From a virus: 64,000 bases of DNA. Within the stretch, counting starts at the first letter, position 1. Each line of letters starts with the position of its first letter. Location of the stretch: positions 1 through 64,000 of the IMG/VR virus record IMGVR_UViG_3300025108_000001. One strand, given 5' to 3'. Positions 55,640-63,329 of the stretch are shown here, one piece after another. A program made the position numbers and the translations under genes. The notes below the pieces were generated by a model, which was not told the origin of the DNA, did no database searches, and saw only the letters and a program-made list of their open reading frames with translations.

Positions 55640-55792
55640 TAGTAAAGTTAATTAAATTAACGATAATAAATAAAAAAAAATAAAAAAAATTTGCAAACAA
55701 AGCATATGGTTGGAGGCTAGGTTTAATCCAACCATATGGTATGGCTGTGACTTTGGTAAGGCCAACCCTATCTGAATATAGTGAGTTATAGT

Positions 55793-55876
55793 ATGTCAGA
55801 AGTTAAGGACTTACACGATGAAATAAAAATTTGGAGACAGCATATGAAAGAATGTAGGAGTGGTTTAAATGAATAA
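55793..55876 (+). CDS. 27-aa leaderless microprotein (not in ORF track)
   Basis: MSEVKDLHDEIKIWRQHMKECRSGLNE; ATG directly follows TAGT, 42 nt from the start of CTTTG; overlaps the next gene. Confidence 0.5.
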   Translation: MSEVKDLHDEIKIWRQHMKECRSGLNE

Positions 55877-56264
55877 TATATTTCAACATAGGCATTATAA
55901 TTATCTTGCTTTAGAATTGCCCTTTATATTGGGTTTAAATGAAGCCGAGGTTTCTTCTATGGCTACTAATCTGAAATACCATAATGAAAATTTTAATCAT
56001 AATAGATTTATGAACACATGGCGTAGAGAAGTTGAAAGAAGGAATGATGAAATGGAAATTACCATAGATAATCTTTCACATTATACATTTGATACAGAAG
56101 CACACAATTCGGGTAAATGTCCTGTTTGTGGAATAAACAACATAGGATATTACAAAGACGAAGTTGGCGTACTACGCCAATGCTTTGACTGTGGTTCTGA
56201 ATGGAATGATGAAATGGAAATTACCATAGAATTAACCGAAGAAACAGGAAGTGAAGTAGAATGA
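55869..56264 (+). CDS. Hypothetical protein with Zn-ribbon module
   Basis: CPVC...CFDC flanked by a duplicated NDEMEITI. Confidence 0.65.
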   Translation: MNNIFQHRHYNYLALELPFILGLNEAEVSSMATNLKYHNENFNHNRFMNTWRREVERRNDEMEITIDNLSHYTFDTEAHNSGKCPVCGINNIGYYKDEVGVLRQCFDCGSEWNDEMEITIELTEETGSEVE

Positions 56265-56539
56265 ATATAGAAGAATATGAGAAAATGAATTGGAAAACAC
56301 CATCTGATGAATTAGAAGATGCGGTGGAAAACTTAGTTGCAGAAGTGAAAAAGTTGCGTGAAGTCATAAGGAAAACCGAAAACCTTTGTACTCACAATTA
56401 TGTGACTATATCGGACTTTGAGATTAACGGCATAAATGTCAGCGTTACTATCCAATGCGATAGGTGCGGAGAAACACAGCAACAAACTTTAGACATAGAG
56501 CAGATAATATGGGATTTGGAATTGGGGTGGATAGATTGA
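56261..56539 (+). CDS. Hypothetical Zn-binding protein
   Basis: CTH...CDRC; ATGA overlap. Confidence 0.65.
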   Translation: MNIEEYEKMNWKTPSDELEDAVENLVAEVKKLREVIRKTENLCTHNYVTISDFEINGINVSVTIQCDRCGETQQQTLDIEQIIWDLELGWID

Positions 56540-56657
56540 GTAAAATATTAGGTTAGAACAAACCTAACAAAAATTGTTCCCCTGAGGGGGGTTGCGTTTC
56601 TCAAAGTTCCACTTACAACCATATGGTGTGGTGGCGACTTATACATGAGTAATGTAA

Positions 56658-56687
56658 TTACTCTTGTTCTTCTTCTTCTTCGTCCAC
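56658..56687 (-). CDS. 9-aa acidic micropeptide MDEEEEEQE
   Basis: Perfect GGAGGTGA SD 5 nt upstream of GTG. Confidence 0.5.
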   Translation of the reverse strand: MDEEEEEQE

Positions 56688-56822
56688 GTTTATCACCTCC
56701 CAATGTGGTAGCGCATCAATACTGATGCTACCATATGGTTGTGCGCGTTGTAAAACTTTGAGAACAATGTGCTGCAACCCGATGGTCTTTCGACCAAAGG
56801 GCTACCATGCATTGTGAGTGCC

Positions 56823-56855
56823 TTAATTTTCCTCTTCTTCTTCATCGTCTTTCAT
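56823..56855 (-). CDS. 10-aa acidic micropeptide MKDDEEEEEN
   Basis: AAAGGAGGT SD upstream; promoter-like element upstream; GAAA-loop hairpin downstream. Confidence 0.55.
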   Translation of the reverse strand: MKDDEEEEEN

Positions 56856-56980
56856 GGTAGCATACCTCCTTTCATACTATACAGTCTGATAACTAATATA
56901 TGAGGTATTACTCAAAGTTTCATACCATATGGTTGTGTAACACTTTGTAGTTCATAACCCCACTATTTTTAGTAAAATAG

Positions 56981-57196
56981 TATCATAGGGCTTCGGTGAA
57001 AGTTGATTCTTTTCATACTTCTAGCAGTGGGAAATTCGTTGTGCTAATATTGTTCAACCGATTAATTATACAATACTGTTCTAGAATAGTATGCATATGT
57101 CATTGAAATTTTAATAGAGACAAGAACGAATGTTCTGACAAATCTAAAAGTGGGATAAATCCTGTGATTCAATCAATTCACTTCAGCCCTGTGATA
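56981..57196 (+). ncRNA. Candidate ~216-nt structured RNA
   Basis: Terminal pairing TATCATAGGGCT/AGCCCTGTGATA (one G-U on the + strand), inner GTGAA/TTCAC and TTGATT/AATCAA, internal hairpins, no ORF in the track. Confidence 0.5.
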
Positions 57197-57207
57197 TCTT
57201 GGGAATT

Positions 57208-57429
57208 TTACATTTGATTTAGTGCATCAAGGTAGGTCTTGAGTACATTGAGTGCTTTACCTGTTTCTTCTACTACTTGAGAAGGTGAATCACCTCTAAT
57301 TTTAAGAGACTTAACAATGTAGACGTGATTTGAACCCGACTTAGATTGGGAAATCTCAATCTCATAGGGGTAACTCAAGTTTAGTATCTGTTCGGGTTGC
57401 GTTGTTTGAACTAACGGTTCTGTTGACAT
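57208..57429 (-). CDS. Leaderless 73-aa protein
   Basis: ATG follows TAGT, 27 nt from the start of a CATATA box and 43 nt from the start of CTTTG. Confidence 0.7.
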   Translation of the reverse strand: MSTEPLVQTTQPEQILNLSYPYEIEISQSKSGSNHVYIVKSLKIRGDSPSQVVEETGKALNVLKTYLDALNQM

Positions 57430-57573
57430 ACTACCTAGAACAAAAAAGAGTATATGGGATAGAACGACAAAGTGTATCCTACCATATGGTTGTAAGTGTG
57501 CTTTGCTAACGAAACCCTATCCTGTTTTGACTTTACCAATAGTGTAAGAGGGTGAAACCCAATATATACAGGA

Positions 57574-58059
57574 ATGATAAATATGACAGAACAACAAACA
57601 ATAGAAGAAAAAATTGATTTAATAACGACATGGATTGATGAAACTGATAGTTTCAACGATGATAATAATATGAGTAATTGGGCAACTTCTTCATGGGCTT
57701 ACGCTCTTGAAGAATATGCGGATACTGGCATAAAATCAGTAATCACAACGACAATTTCTCAATTTTCTAGGGCTGCTAAAAGATTTAAACTTAGTGATTA
57801 TCCTCTAGGCACTAGAGGTTCAAACTCTGTTTCTGCTGAAACTCAAGCGGAAATTGACGCACACAACCCATTCTTAGATTTTATGATGGAAGCATACGAG
57901 GCTCTGCCTGAAGTTAGCCACATTCACGCTAAAAAATCAAAGGCACGACCTGACAGACGCTACCTATCAGCGAAAGATTTTAGAAATCATTGGCTAGGTA
58001 TAATCACAGACAACGCAAAGGAGGCCGCTAAAACGGCTGATGTGGAGGCTACTCAATAA
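57574..58059 (+). CDS. Hypothetical protein flanked by long inverted repeats
   Basis: 161 aa (start may be 57583); UTRs carry perfect 15-bp plus 7-bp inverted repeats. Confidence 0.75.
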   Translation: MINMTEQQTIEEKIDLITTWIDETDSFNDDNNMSNWATSSWAYALEEYADTGIKSVITTTISQFSRAAKRFKLSDYPLGTRGSNSVSAETQAEIDAHNPFLDFMMEAYEALPEVSHIHAKKSKARPDRRYLSAKDFRNHWLGIITDNAKEAAKTADVEATQ

Positions 58060-58339
58060 TTGGGTAGCCTTCACCCTCTTACACCTCAGGGTTTACATTA
58101 ACAAAGCAACATTCCAAACCATATGGTTGTAGGTCTTAGATACACAAGGATAGTAAATGGAATTTATGTACTTTATGGTGGGTCGGTCGGCTTATATATG
58201 GTTTCGTGAATCCAGTGGTGTAAATCAAGAGATGACATCATTTGCCTGAGTGTAATCTATATTTCATATAAAGATAGTATCCTTGTGGAAAATACCTTTC
58301 ACTACCTACTACAACACTCATTTTGATGACTCATACTCT

Positions 58340-61752: not shown

Positions 61753-62040
61753 ATGAGATTTAAAAATGTAAAACACGCAGAATATGAAATAATAAGAGCA
61801 ATATTACACAACCCTAACAATGAAAACTTTATTGTTTCCATTGAAAAGGTTAGGGAAAAAGGAGTACCAAAAGGAGATAATGTAGCAGATAAACGCTTTA
61901 CTAAAGCAGCCGCTAATATTATCTCTATATTGAGAAACCTTCAGGGTAGTAGGTTATCATCACTGCCCGAAGGTCATATGGACTATGGTCTCACAATTAA
62001 AGAAATGATAAAAGAAAATGTAAGGAGGAATAAGAAATGA
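61753..62040 (+). CDS. Hypothetical protein
   Basis: Coupled ORF with GAGG SD. Confidence 0.65.
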   Translation: MRFKNVKHAEYEIIRAILHNPNNENFIVSIEKVREKGVPKGDNVADKRFTKAAANIISILRNLQGSRLSSLPEGHMDYGLTIKEMIKENVRRNKK

Positions 62041-62225
62041 ATATAATAAATGAAATAAATAACGGAAATCAAATACTAATATTACGAGACCCGATACCTA
62101 AAGGTAAATTGGGCATATCGTTTATCTTCGATGACGATAAGAGGTTCAACGGAACATTAGATATGTCAAAACATAGAGAATTAATTCTCGCTATTGCAGA
62201 AGCAATTCAGGATGAAGAGGAATAA
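62037..62225 (+). CDS. Hypothetical protein
   Basis: ATGA overlap, GGAGG SD. Confidence 0.6.
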   Translation: MNIINEINNGNQILILRDPIPKGKLGISFIFDDDKRFNGTLDMSKHRELILAIAEAIQDEEE

Positions 62226-62227
62226 AA

Positions 62228-62344
62228 ATGAGTATAATAGTTGAAAAATGCATTACTTGTGGAAAAATTAGAAAAATTTGGAGTAATGAAAACGGCTTCC
62301 AGTGTAAGAAATGTTTTGACCCTAAGCCTACTCGGAGTGATTGA
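62228..62344 (+). CDS. 38-aa Zn-finger microprotein (not in ORF track)
   Basis: MSIIVEKCITCGKIRKIWSNENGFQCKKCFDPKPTRSD; starts just after the previous stop. Confidence 0.55.
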   Translation: MSIIVEKCITCGKIRKIWSNENGFQCKKCFDPKPTRSD

Positions 62345-62345
62345 G

Positions 62346-62642
62346 TTGTCAATTATGGTTGAAGATTTTAGTAGAAAACATTACGCTAGATTTACTAACG
62401 GTGTTGTCTGTATAGATGATGTTCAAGCATTTACTTGGAGTAAACTAAAACCTAGTGATGATTTAACTAAGTTTATTTATCCGGCCACTAAATCAGGTGA
62501 TGTCTATAAAATAGTTATCTTCCTAAAAGGAGGACAGAATTTTATAACAGCAACAAGCCCTAAGAATCTAAAAAAGGTCATAAATAGATTCAAAGAACAA
62601 AAAACCCTTCTTGGAGAAGATGAACTATGGGAAGAGGAATGA
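62346..62642 (+). CDS. Hypothetical protein
   Basis: Probable start TTG 62346 or ATG 62355 after GGAGTGA, rather than 62241. Confidence 0.6.
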   Translation: MSIMVEDFSRKHYARFTNGVVCIDDVQAFTWSKLKPSDDLTKFIYPATKSGDVYKIVIFLKGGQNFITATSPKNLKKVINRFKEQKTLLGEDELWEEE

Positions 62643-62838: not shown

Positions 62839-63069
62839 ATGGAAAATATAGAAATGAAAAAATGGAGAGAAAATCAAAACTACAAGATAGGCCACATAGG
62901 TTGGTCTGTTTTAGGTGGTAAATGGTATCAAGTAGAAGTTATTGGTAAAGAATATTATCCCATTACGGGAAATTTTCGAAGACACGTTGTAAAAATATTA
63001 AATATGGATTATACATTTAAGAGAATAACGATTTACACAAGAAAAGAAAAGGAGATGAATGAAATATGA
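62839..63069 (+). CDS. Hypothetical protein
   Basis: Coupled small ORF. Confidence 0.6.
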   Translation: MENIEMKKWRENQNYKIGHIGWSVLGGKWYQVEVIGKEYYPITGNFRRHVVKILNMDYTFKRITIYTRKEKEMNEI

Positions 63070-63329
63070 ATATAGAAGAAAGAATAAGAAGAAATGATGA
63101 ATTAAGAACAAAAGCCCCAATACCTGATGGTGTTGAAGATTTAAGAGGAATTACATTTAGAAATAAATATAACTCCGCTTTAATTACTATTATATCAAGT
63201 AAAATTACTGATTTAGGTAATATTTTTTGGAGAGCAGATGTGGGTGGTATCTATGATACTAAGGAACTAAATAATCACTGGAATAGATTAACAGATATAG
63301 GAATGAAAATGTTAGAGCAAGAGGAATAA
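63066..63329 (+). CDS. Hypothetical protein
   Basis: ATGA overlap. Confidence 0.6.
   Translation: MNIEERIRRNDELRTKAPIPDGVEDLRGITFRNKYNSALITIISSKITDLGNIFWRADVGGIYDTKELNNHWNRLTDIGMKMLEQEE

Follow-up and report, generated by a model that had tools for sequence, protein, structure and literature searches.

The nearest known object to the genes described here is mccA, the 7-codon gene for the microcin C precursor in E. coli and others. Our subject is a pair of ultra-short open reading frames (ORFs) on the minus strand of IMG/VR virus record IMGVR_UViG_3300025108_000001, within positions 1 to 64,000, a stretch of 64,000 nucleotides that we call the window. They encode the acidic peptides MKDDEEEEEN (micro-ORF 1) and MDEEEEEQE (micro-ORF 2). 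From the sequence comparisons presented below we conclude that both are genuine ultra-short genes under selection and that they belong to a family of acidic micro-peptide genes in group-B-like magroviruses. The family is undescribed; ultra-short translated genes as such are already known in the form of mccA and the minigenes.

Comparison with known systems

Like the window genes, mccA is ultra-short, has its own strong Shine-Dalgarno (SD) sequence and is followed by a hairpin. Ribosome binding controls formation of the mccA hairpin and stabilizes the RNA (PMC4231749). The size comparison also holds, since the family has a mode of six codons, the window ORFs have 9 and 10, and the SD sequences are strong. 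The products differ. The C-terminal Asn that is invariant in the microcin precursor and needed for the N-P bond (PMC6495379) is not a constant of the family, most of the peptides ending in Asp or Glu. No MccB-type enzyme, exporter or immunity gene is adjacent and the sole ThiF-family gene of the virus lies approximately 11.7 kb away. Further differences are the archaeal host, the acidic nature of the peptides and their multiple copies; many of the genes, moreover, are coupled behind others instead of heading an operon.

The bar minigenes of phage lambda are associated with peptidyl-tRNA drop-off and with effects on ribosomes and tRNA. They and the synthetic minigenes resemble the present genes in being phage-borne, SD-led ORFs only a few codons long, from which no protein-sized product is expected (PMC2490762). 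The bar-type range of 2-8 codons accommodates the hexapeptide members of the family, whilst the window ORFs have 9 and 10 codons. Unlike the minigenes, the acidic ORFs have a peptide sequence under selection, use common codons and have a variable last codon in place of a particular or rare one. They also belong to a virus that carries no Pth2 gene and has an archaeal host.

MgtL-type leaders have an Asp/Glu run within the first ~30 residues, as do all members of the family. Such early acidic runs in very short ORFs abort or pause translation and serve as a sensor, an effect that EttA relieves, according to PMC11282234 and bioRxiv 10.1101/2021.02.02.429294. In contrast to MgtL leaders there is no regulated downstream gene in the window, and in relatives it is the leaderless 11-mers alone that overlap a downstream gene; prolines are lacking, position 2 has a conserved aromatic residue, and the effect is known outside archaea. 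The his and trp attenuation leaders also offer a codon run, for the amino acid that their downstream operon makes, but no biosynthetic operon adjoins the acidic ORFs. The family thus lacks two defining features of mccA, the invariant C-terminal Asn and an adjacent MccB, and at least one defining feature of both the lambda bar-type minigenes and the MgtL-type leaders.

Two further systems bear on the surroundings of the genes. Arbitrium AimP and Phr-type peptides have a mature length of 5-6 residues, are cut from secreted precursors with signal sequences and are encoded next to a TPR receptor gene. The resemblance lies in a virus-encoded product of hexapeptide size and a control region rich in palindromic operator-like sites. 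Here, unlike AimP, the ORF itself is the peptide, with 6-14 codons and no room for a signal sequence, and the flanking proteins of 73, 92, 131 and 161 aa gave no match to a TPR family in Pfam or PHROG searches using sequence profiles only. The PeSL mobile cassettes of T4-type phages are small units bounded by promoter/stem-loop repeats that shuffle between related genomes. Repeat-bounded units likewise vary in order and orientation between the related viral genomes considered here, but here an archaeal-type promoter/operator built around a CCATATGG core is repeated, and acidic ORFs of 6-14 codons are among the cargo.

The two micro-ORFs of the window

A sequence-only reading of the window had proposed two poly-Glu micro-ORFs with strong SD sequences, each alone in a palindrome-bounded interval. 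Reading the minus strand directly places both exactly where they had been proposed, and the SD sequences and bounding palindromes are likewise present. The elements are as follows (contigs other than the window are cited by L numbers).

56925-56932, both strands: palindromic core CCATATGG, upstream boundary of unit 1
56872-56864, minus strand: SD sequence 1, AAAGGAGGT, 8 nt (atgctacc) upstream of the ATG; unchanged in L002, L028 and L036
56855-56823, minus strand: micro-ORF 1, MKDDEEEEEN; ATG AAA GAC GAT GAA GAA GAA GAG GAA AAT TAA, 10 codons plus stop
56731-56738, both strands: palindromic core CCATATGG between units 1 and 2
56701-56693, minus strand: SD sequence 2, GGGAGGTGA, 5 nt (taaac) before the GTG
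56687-56658, minus strand: micro-ORF 2, MDEEEEEQE; GTG GAC (GAA)5 CAA GAG TAA, 9 codons plus stop, with a GTG start
56619-56626, both strands: palindromic core CCATATGG, downstream boundary of unit 2

Of 65 long ORFs of this virus, 21 have an SD-like motif in front of them, as against 3.7% of random positions, and SD-led initiation is therefore in use in this system. The genome contains 30 SD-preceded ORFs of 4-14 codons compared to 25 +/- 5 in mononucleotide shuffles. Only the two micro-ORFs among these 30 have a run of at least four Asp/Glu, and not one of 200 shuffles produced even a single case, so the pair is not a product of chance, as the sequence-only reading had argued.

The family in related viruses

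L002 and L003 are viral contigs found by way of the neighbouring 73-aa protein and L011 by way of the cassette pattern, which also matched 29 marine metagenome contigs (Tara and other ocean samples). With the window included, the contigs fall into ~25 clusters at 97% identity. They hold 70 instances of acidic micro-ORFs in 46 distinct cassettes, with two to four copies per control region. A scan of a genome collection with the same pattern gave one match, in a Chitinophagaceae metagenome-assembled genome, which we take as chance.

The commonest peptides are MFDEED (15 instances), MFDDDE (7), MYDDED (6), MFDDEEN (4), MFDDED (4) and MFDDEE (3). Rarer members are MFNDEE, MFSDEE, MFYDDE, MYDEED, MDDDDC, MTDDDC, MDDDDA, MFDDDA, MYDDTDDE and MFDDEDDDC. 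Lengths range from 6 to 14 codons with a mode of six (31 of 43 distinct cassettes), and position 2 is Phe or Tyr in most members. Orthologues of micro-ORF 1 encode MKYDDEEEEEED, MKSDEEEEEED and MTYIYSEEEEEEEN, and at the same site other relatives have MFDEED, MFDDED, MFDDDE or MFYDDE, coupled to the upstream gene. Orthologues of micro-ORF 2 encode MDEEEEEEQE (L028, L033, L036 and L038) and MDEDEEEEQE (L002), and its type of cassette elsewhere encodes MFDDEEN, MFDDEE, MFDDDE, MFNDEE, MYDDED or MYDEED.

Poly-Glu, by which the sequence-only reading had characterized the pair, is not what the family conserves. Asp is commoner than Glu, 105 residues to 91 in the 43 distinct cassettes, and some members (MDDDDC) have no Glu, which is why poly-Glu is, on these alignments, best regarded as a local GAA-expanded sub-lineage and the family trait as a brief stretch of Asp/Glu, in most cases preceded by Phe or Tyr. 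The last sense codon may be GAT, GAA, GAG, AAC, AAT, TGT, GCT or GCG. The only peptides to end in Asn are MKDDEEEEEN, MFDDEEN and MTYIYSEEEEEEEN. Codon use is close to that of the long genes of the virus (GAT 0.68 vs 0.80, GAA 0.86 vs 0.84).

Evidence for translation

When the 31 distinct hexapeptide cassettes are aligned at the start codon, all have ATG or GTG as start and T(A/G)A as stop, with GGGAGG at -13 to -8. Averaged across codons 2-6, column entropy amounts to 0.31, 0.36 and 1.22 bits at codon positions 1, 2 and 3, respectively. Synonymous variation is present: MFDEED occurs in five nucleotide versions and MFDDDE in four. Across the family the SD core ends 6-10 nt before the start codon, and in type-2b cassettes, to which unit 2 belongs, SD sequence 2 is kept as ACAT(C/T)(A/G)GGAGGTG. 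An intact SD-led ORF is found in 30 of 31 type-2 cassettes, the exception being L013, with CTG for the start codon.

Orthologues differ in length only by whole codons: unit 2 measures 30 or 33 nt and unit 1 measures 33, 36, 39 or 45 nt, and one change of length in unit 1 is a non-repeat insertion (MKDD vs MTYIYS). Relatives therefore keep SD, start and stop, and every difference of length remains in frame, where frameshifting indels in the GAA runs would have spoken against the genes. The TTY/TAC second codon, the codons that depart from the GAN pattern, the SD spacing of 6-10 nt and the conserved start and stop argue for translation. Conservation thus extends to the translation signals and to the theme of the peptide.

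Other coding possibilities were rejected. Antisense coding of type-I-toxin-like ORFs, in which (GAN)n would read as hydrophobic (NTC)n, gives mostly stop-to-stop pieces of 7-18 codons that have no start and are unconserved. Some 2a cassettes would allow a longer in-frame ORF from an ATG within the core, MVASMNNCATTRGYSGGILMFDEED, but the L011-type 2a cassettes have it out of frame and in 2b it meets a TGA.

Promoters and palindromic cores

The cores are part of an extended palindromic site, CAAAG-N-CCATATGG-N-CTTTG. Six CCATATGG cores occur in the 99-kb genome, all at 55.7-58.1 kb, where 0.53 would be expected per window. They lie at 55732, 56619, 56731, 56925, 57482 and 58119, with a variant at 55702 (window 55702-58126). 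The extended sites are flanked on one or both sides by predicted archaeal-type promoters, A/T-CC-C/T plus ATAT ~27 nt before TAGTATG.

Upstream of unit 1 the layout is CCATATGG-N7-CTTTG-N7-ACCTC-ATATATT-N15-TAGTATG, from which we predict the following promoter.

56873-56917, minus strand: predicted promoter of unit 1, with CTTTG at 56917-56913, ACCTC-ATATATT at 56906-56895 (TFB recognition element (BRE)/TATA position ~-27) and the initiator TAGTATG at 56879-56873

The sequence appears to fit an archaeal BRE/TATA promoter placed ~27 nt before the transcription start. The layout aligns with that of the leaderless 73-aa gene (ATG at 57429), a 27-codon ORF at 55794 and several genes of relatives. 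The conserved Met of the 73-aa gene is the ATG of TAGTATG, and since that gene starts at the promoter ATG a leaderless mRNA is implied. A TFIIB/TFB-like protein is encoded by the virus and could be the reader of these promoters. It has 329 aa (genome 67156-68145, L007:3156-4145, plus strand), with a TFIIB zinc ribbon at 28.8 bits, just below the Pfam cut-off of 29 bits, and a weak TFIIB cyclin repeat.

The 27-codon ORF, MSEVKDLHDEIKIWRQHMKECRSGLNE (window 55794-55877, plus strand), starts at a promoter TAGTATG, and its TAA stop lies 6 nt past the ATG of the 131-aa gene, an out-of-frame overlap of 9 nt. A leaderless upstream ORF, MKGGMLP, had been proposed to overlap the start of micro-ORF 1 (ATGA). 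The seven codons exist (56875-56852), but they are not conserved, the ATG being ATC in L002. We regard this ORF as incidental, its ATG being part of the promoter initiator TAGTATG.

The order and orientation of cassettes vary between genomes, and for that reason the units seem to shuffle by recombination at the palindromic cores. Compared to window 56619-56738, for example, the type-2 cassette is inverted and relocated in L002 (5408-5531) and a tandem duplicate in L003 (6524-6753).

Start types and RNA structures

The common C-terminal motif (F/Y)-D-(D/E)-(D/E)-(D/E) is found behind three types of start. The first has its own promoter and SD, as in window unit 1. In the second, an overlapping TAATG or TGATG couples the micro-ORF to a real upstream gene (L003:4970, L011:13215, L012, L030, L032, L034); overlaps of this type give termination-reinitiation in archaea (PMC6728339). 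The third type consists of leaderless ORFs of 11-12 codons, M(Q/L/H)xxIG(Y/F)D(D/E)(D/E)E, which follow a promoter directly and run into the start of the next gene. This leaderless class occurs in relatives only (L003:5675-5710, L012:3145, L030:1801, L032:6445, L034:2429 and L026).

Several RNA structures accompany the window ORFs.

56806-56774, minus strand: GNRA hairpin GGTAGCCC-TT-TGGTC-GAAA-GACCA-TC-GGGTTGC, beginning 16 nt after the stop of micro-ORF 1
56732-56707, minus strand: hairpin GGTAGCATCA-GTAT-TGATGCGCTACC, upstream of SD 2 and including half of the core
56663-56647, minus strand: hairpin GAGTAATTACATTACTC over the last codon and stop of micro-ORF 2
56645-56627, minus strand: conserved box TGTATAAGTCGCCACCACA, partly complementary to SD 2
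56591-56566, minus strand: terminator-like hairpin CCCCCCTCAGGGG plus AATTTTTGTT, facing convergent plus-strand genes that end at 56539

The GAAA-loop hairpin that the sequence-only reading saw 3' of micro-ORF 1 is therefore present, and it is conserved with compensatory changes. Type-1 micro-ORFs, with their own promoter or coupled, are followed in 9 of 9 distinct cases by a GNRA hairpin at a distance of 13-16 nt from the stop. The loop is GAAA, GGAA or GCAA, always GNRA, and the stem changes from GGTC/GACC to GTAC/GTAC, with one base pair inserted in L003. Read by eye, the 5' arm of the window hairpin (56809-56801) can alternatively pair with GCTACCATG (56861-56853), covering the start codon; in relatives this alternative survives only by virtue of G-U pairs.

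Each type-2 cassette is flanked by two cores. Subtype 2a, absent from the window, pairs the SD with a C-rich tract after the ORF and there is covariation, one pair being GC in 7 cases and AU in 6. For subtype 2b, which includes window unit 2, RNAalifold recovers only the invariant core-adjacent hairpin. The GGTAGCATCA-GTAT-TGATGCGCTACC stem is invariant in 15 cassettes, and covariation hence speaks neither for nor against it. By eye, unit 2 of the window could form an SD-sequestering stem (8 of 9 pairs, wobbles included), but RNAalifold does not find it for 2b and we do not claim it. Overall the cassettes are highly structured, with z-scores of -4 to -5.

No co-oriented gene lies downstream of either micro-ORF in the window. 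Unit 2 is followed by the terminator-like hairpin, likely the end of minus-strand transcription, and then by the convergent genes.

The virus and its control region

The virus record, 99,250 bp in length with 33% G+C, carries direct terminal repeats; its first 64 kb make up the window. The repeat is ~5.4 kb long (genome 1-5440 and 93811-99250), identical short ORFs recurring at an offset of 93,810 bp. Head genes for terminase, portal, prohead protease and capsid are present, together with replication genes for a UvrD-type helicase, an RFC-like clamp loader and a family-B polymerase split in two genes. Two ATP-dependent ligases are encoded, one of them within the structural module. Philosof 2017 (PMC5434244) names two features as hallmarks of the group B magroviruses of Marine Group II archaea: a split polymerase and a ligase placed in the structural module. 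Because its gene content matches these hallmarks we identify the virus, from its sequence, as a group-B-like magrovirus of Poseidoniales (Marine Group II) archaea.

The micro-ORFs lie within a 4-kb early/switch, or control, region between the leftward structural and rightward replication modules. A blastn search of a phage database with this region gave no match. The flanking small proteins and the micro-ORF-coupled genes of relatives have no Pfam or PHROG match above curated cut-offs and none that is informative; there are three sub-threshold Pfam hits in all (HVO_0758, RdfA and Sey1_3HB), and the first two are the only ones among the 73-, 92-, 131- and 161-aa proteins. The 131-aa gene contains a 28-nt perfect direct repeat (window 56041-56068 and 56203-56230, plus strand), each copy of which encodes NDEMEITI. 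Between the 73-aa gene and unit 1 there is an ORF-free stretch of 240 nt (window 56966-57207, minus strand) with an 8-bp hairpin, ACTATTTT-ACTA-AAAATAGT, which is poorly conserved in L002 and L003 except for short blocks.

Eight proteins of the replication module have acidic tails (...IQDEEE, ...LWEEE, ...LEQEE, ...MLEEE, ...GDEE; genome 62037-88947, plus strand), examples in the window being 62037-62225, 62241-62642 and 63066-63329. Proteins of the structural module have none. Further along the genome an operon (68147-69851, L007:4147-5851, plus strand) encodes a candidate ubiquitin-like system. Its genes are an 87-aa ORF, the ThiF/E1-like gene (209 aa) and two others, for proteins of 81 and 190 aa. 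The 81-aa protein has the C-terminus ...EQMGGI; the 190-aa protein has the C-terminus ...TMGGEE and contains a JAMM-like motif, H-T-H-P-x7-S-S-T-D. Close by, a protein of 110 aa terminates in ...LKGGEE.

What is selected: peptide, translation or RNA?

Given that the ORFs are probably translated, what is their product for? Does the peptide act, or the act of making it, or the RNA? The action of the product can only be inferred, and the reading we place first, with a probability of roughly 40%, is an abundant free acidic peptide acting in trans. The selected product would be a peptide with a short Asp/Glu run at or near the C-terminus, usually after Phe or Tyr. It would be made in large amounts, since ORFs of 2-8 codons behind a strong SD could be re-translated many times by one ribosome. 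Early in infection it may then act in trans on a basic pocket, as competitor or ligand, where normally an acidic tail or acidic ligand of some host or viral protein is recognized. Translation would be gated by the RNA around it, the start region of unit 1 competing for the base of the GNRA hairpin and, in type-2a cassettes, a stem closing over the SD.

This reading is ranked first because the peptide is what three modes of initiation and at least four RNA contexts have in common. It is also favoured because position 2 is Phe or Tyr in most members and the genes are multi-copy with strong SD sequences. ORFs of 2-8 codons are known to be re-translated without ribosome release, for ~71 rounds in the case of mccA in vitro (PMC6495379), and the mccA RNA is stabilized by the bound ribosome, the repeated cycles leading to a high yield of peptide (PMC4231749, PMC6495379). 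The eight replication proteins, whose tails combine hydrophobic with acidic residues, give a weak hint that some partner reads such tails.

Four points weigh against this reading. Asp and Glu codons differ only at position 3, so that the periodicity would fit a (GAN)n nucleic-acid motif almost as well. A peptide of six residues may bind weakly and be degraded quickly. Both window ORFs are devoid of an aromatic residue. Finally, a cis-acting device would also be compatible with the conserved RNA structures that surround the ORFs.

The sequence-only reading had offered DNA mimics, acidic-tail mimics and ribosome- or tRNA-Glu-sequestering minigenes, for use in host takeover. An acidic-tail mimic or competitor peptide appears the best of these options, and the units do lie in an early/switch region, between the structural and replication modules. 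A DNA mimic is implausible with a modal product of only six residues. Sequestering specific for tRNA-Glu is unlikely given that Asp outnumbers Glu and some members have no Glu. Classic tRNA-sequestering minigenes also differ from these genes, in which the last sense codon varies and the codons are common.

The most credible alternative, though an unlikely one, is that translation itself is selected and the peptide is not, the ORFs being virus-made sinks or sensors (of Mg2+, for example) for host ribosomes or tRNA. An early Asp/Glu run would destabilize the ribosome and a very short ORF would favour peptidyl-tRNA drop-off or ribosome capture. The one universal feature of the family, at least 3-4 acidic residues in a run within the first 14 codons, is what such a mechanism calls for, as are several copies within an early region. 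According to PMC11282234 and bioRxiv 10.1101/2021.02.02.429294, N-terminal acidic runs pause or abort translation in bacteria and eukaryotes, and minigenes of 3-8 codons with a strong SD sequester tRNA (PMC2490762). The conserved Phe or Tyr at position 2 is at odds with this, since the bioRxiv report has bulky residues near the peptidyl-transferase centre counteracting destabilization. In the leaderless 11-mers, moreover, the acidic motif comes after six other residues. No fixed or rare codon occupies the last sense position, a Pth2 gene is missing from the virus and the 64-kb window yielded no tRNA. Ribosome destabilization is established for bacteria and eukaryotes but not for archaeal ribosomes.

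More doubtful is a cis-acting switch, in which a ribosome on the micro-ORF selects an RNA fold and thereby the 3' end, stability or read-through of a short transcript; where a gene overlaps the micro-ORF stop, the micro-ORF would set re-initiation on that gene. The mccA gene provides a precedent, ribosome binding inducing the terminator hairpin (PMC4231749). The GNRA hairpin in 9 of 9 cases with its compensatory changes, the covarying SD:anti-SD stem of type 2a and the overlap of the leaderless 11-mers with the start of the next gene are all consistent with such a device, and in unit 1 a bound ribosome would free the hairpin from its alternative pairing with the start region. Neither window unit, however, has a co-oriented downstream gene to control, and unit 2 runs into a terminator-like hairpin and convergent genes. 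The RNA context varies with the type of cassette while the peptide theme stays, and a pure switch does not need Asp and Glu. We know of no established case of hairpin-dependent termination in archaea.

It is improbable that the element is untranslated, with the GAN run and its flanks forming an RNA or DNA motif (a protein-binding loop on the cassette stem, or part of an operator array) and the frames a by-product. GAN runs are free of stops in all three sense frames, the cassettes are as highly structured as noted above and they lie between operator-like palindromes. Against this, the SD spacing, the invariant start and stop and the TTY/TAC second codon fit coding, as do the breaks in the GAN pattern (AAT, AGT, ACT, TGT, GCT), and the TAATG/TGATG coupling is conserved. 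Rfam gave no match at the gathering threshold or even at E=1.

We give still less credence to the hexapeptides being small-molecule-like signals of a viral genetic switch, an archaeal counterpart of arbitrium-type control read by an operator-binding protein. Six-codon genes among palindromic operators would give a high yield, and the peptides might possibly be released by lysis and taken up via oligopeptide transporters, for which Marine Group II archaea are known.

Precursors for enzymatic modification, MccA-like (C-terminal Asn, which the ThiF-like MccB adenylates) or PaaP-like (Glu-Glu-Asn core, ThiF-like PaaA), are the least likely of all: the virus does encode a ThiF-family protein (PF00899, E 1.5e-18), some peptides do end in Glu-Asn (MKDDEEEEEN, MFDDEEN) and the gene size and strong SD do resemble mccA, but only 6 of the 258 non-Met residues encoded by the 43 cassettes are Asn so that few peptides can end in it, the ThiF gene (genome 68.4-69.0 kb) belongs to its own operon with GG-ended proteins, no RimK-type ligase was found in the virus, and MccB and PaaA carry an extra N-terminal peptide-binding domain whereas the viral ThiF protein has only 209 residues.

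Significance

The magrovirus literature that we consulted (Philosof 2017, PMC5434244, and a 2025 paper) makes no mention of a promoter. In the 2025 paper palindrome, small ORF and intergenic are likewise unmentioned and 'peptide' is used only in unrelated senses.

In the surface ocean magroviruses rank with the most abundant viruses; with their hosts uncultured, the takeover of the cell is barely understood. The cassettes mark the promoter/operator array of the virus. Genes of six codons are missed by every gene caller and, if our conclusions are true, few protein-coding genes with demonstrable selection would be shorter than those of the 6-codon family, which are one codon below mccA. Should the peptide be the effector, the family would point to a hub, in the host or the virus, by which acidic tails are read. 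Should translation be the effector, the family would represent the first natural use of acidic nascent-chain destabilization or minigene-type ribosome capture by an archaeal virus.

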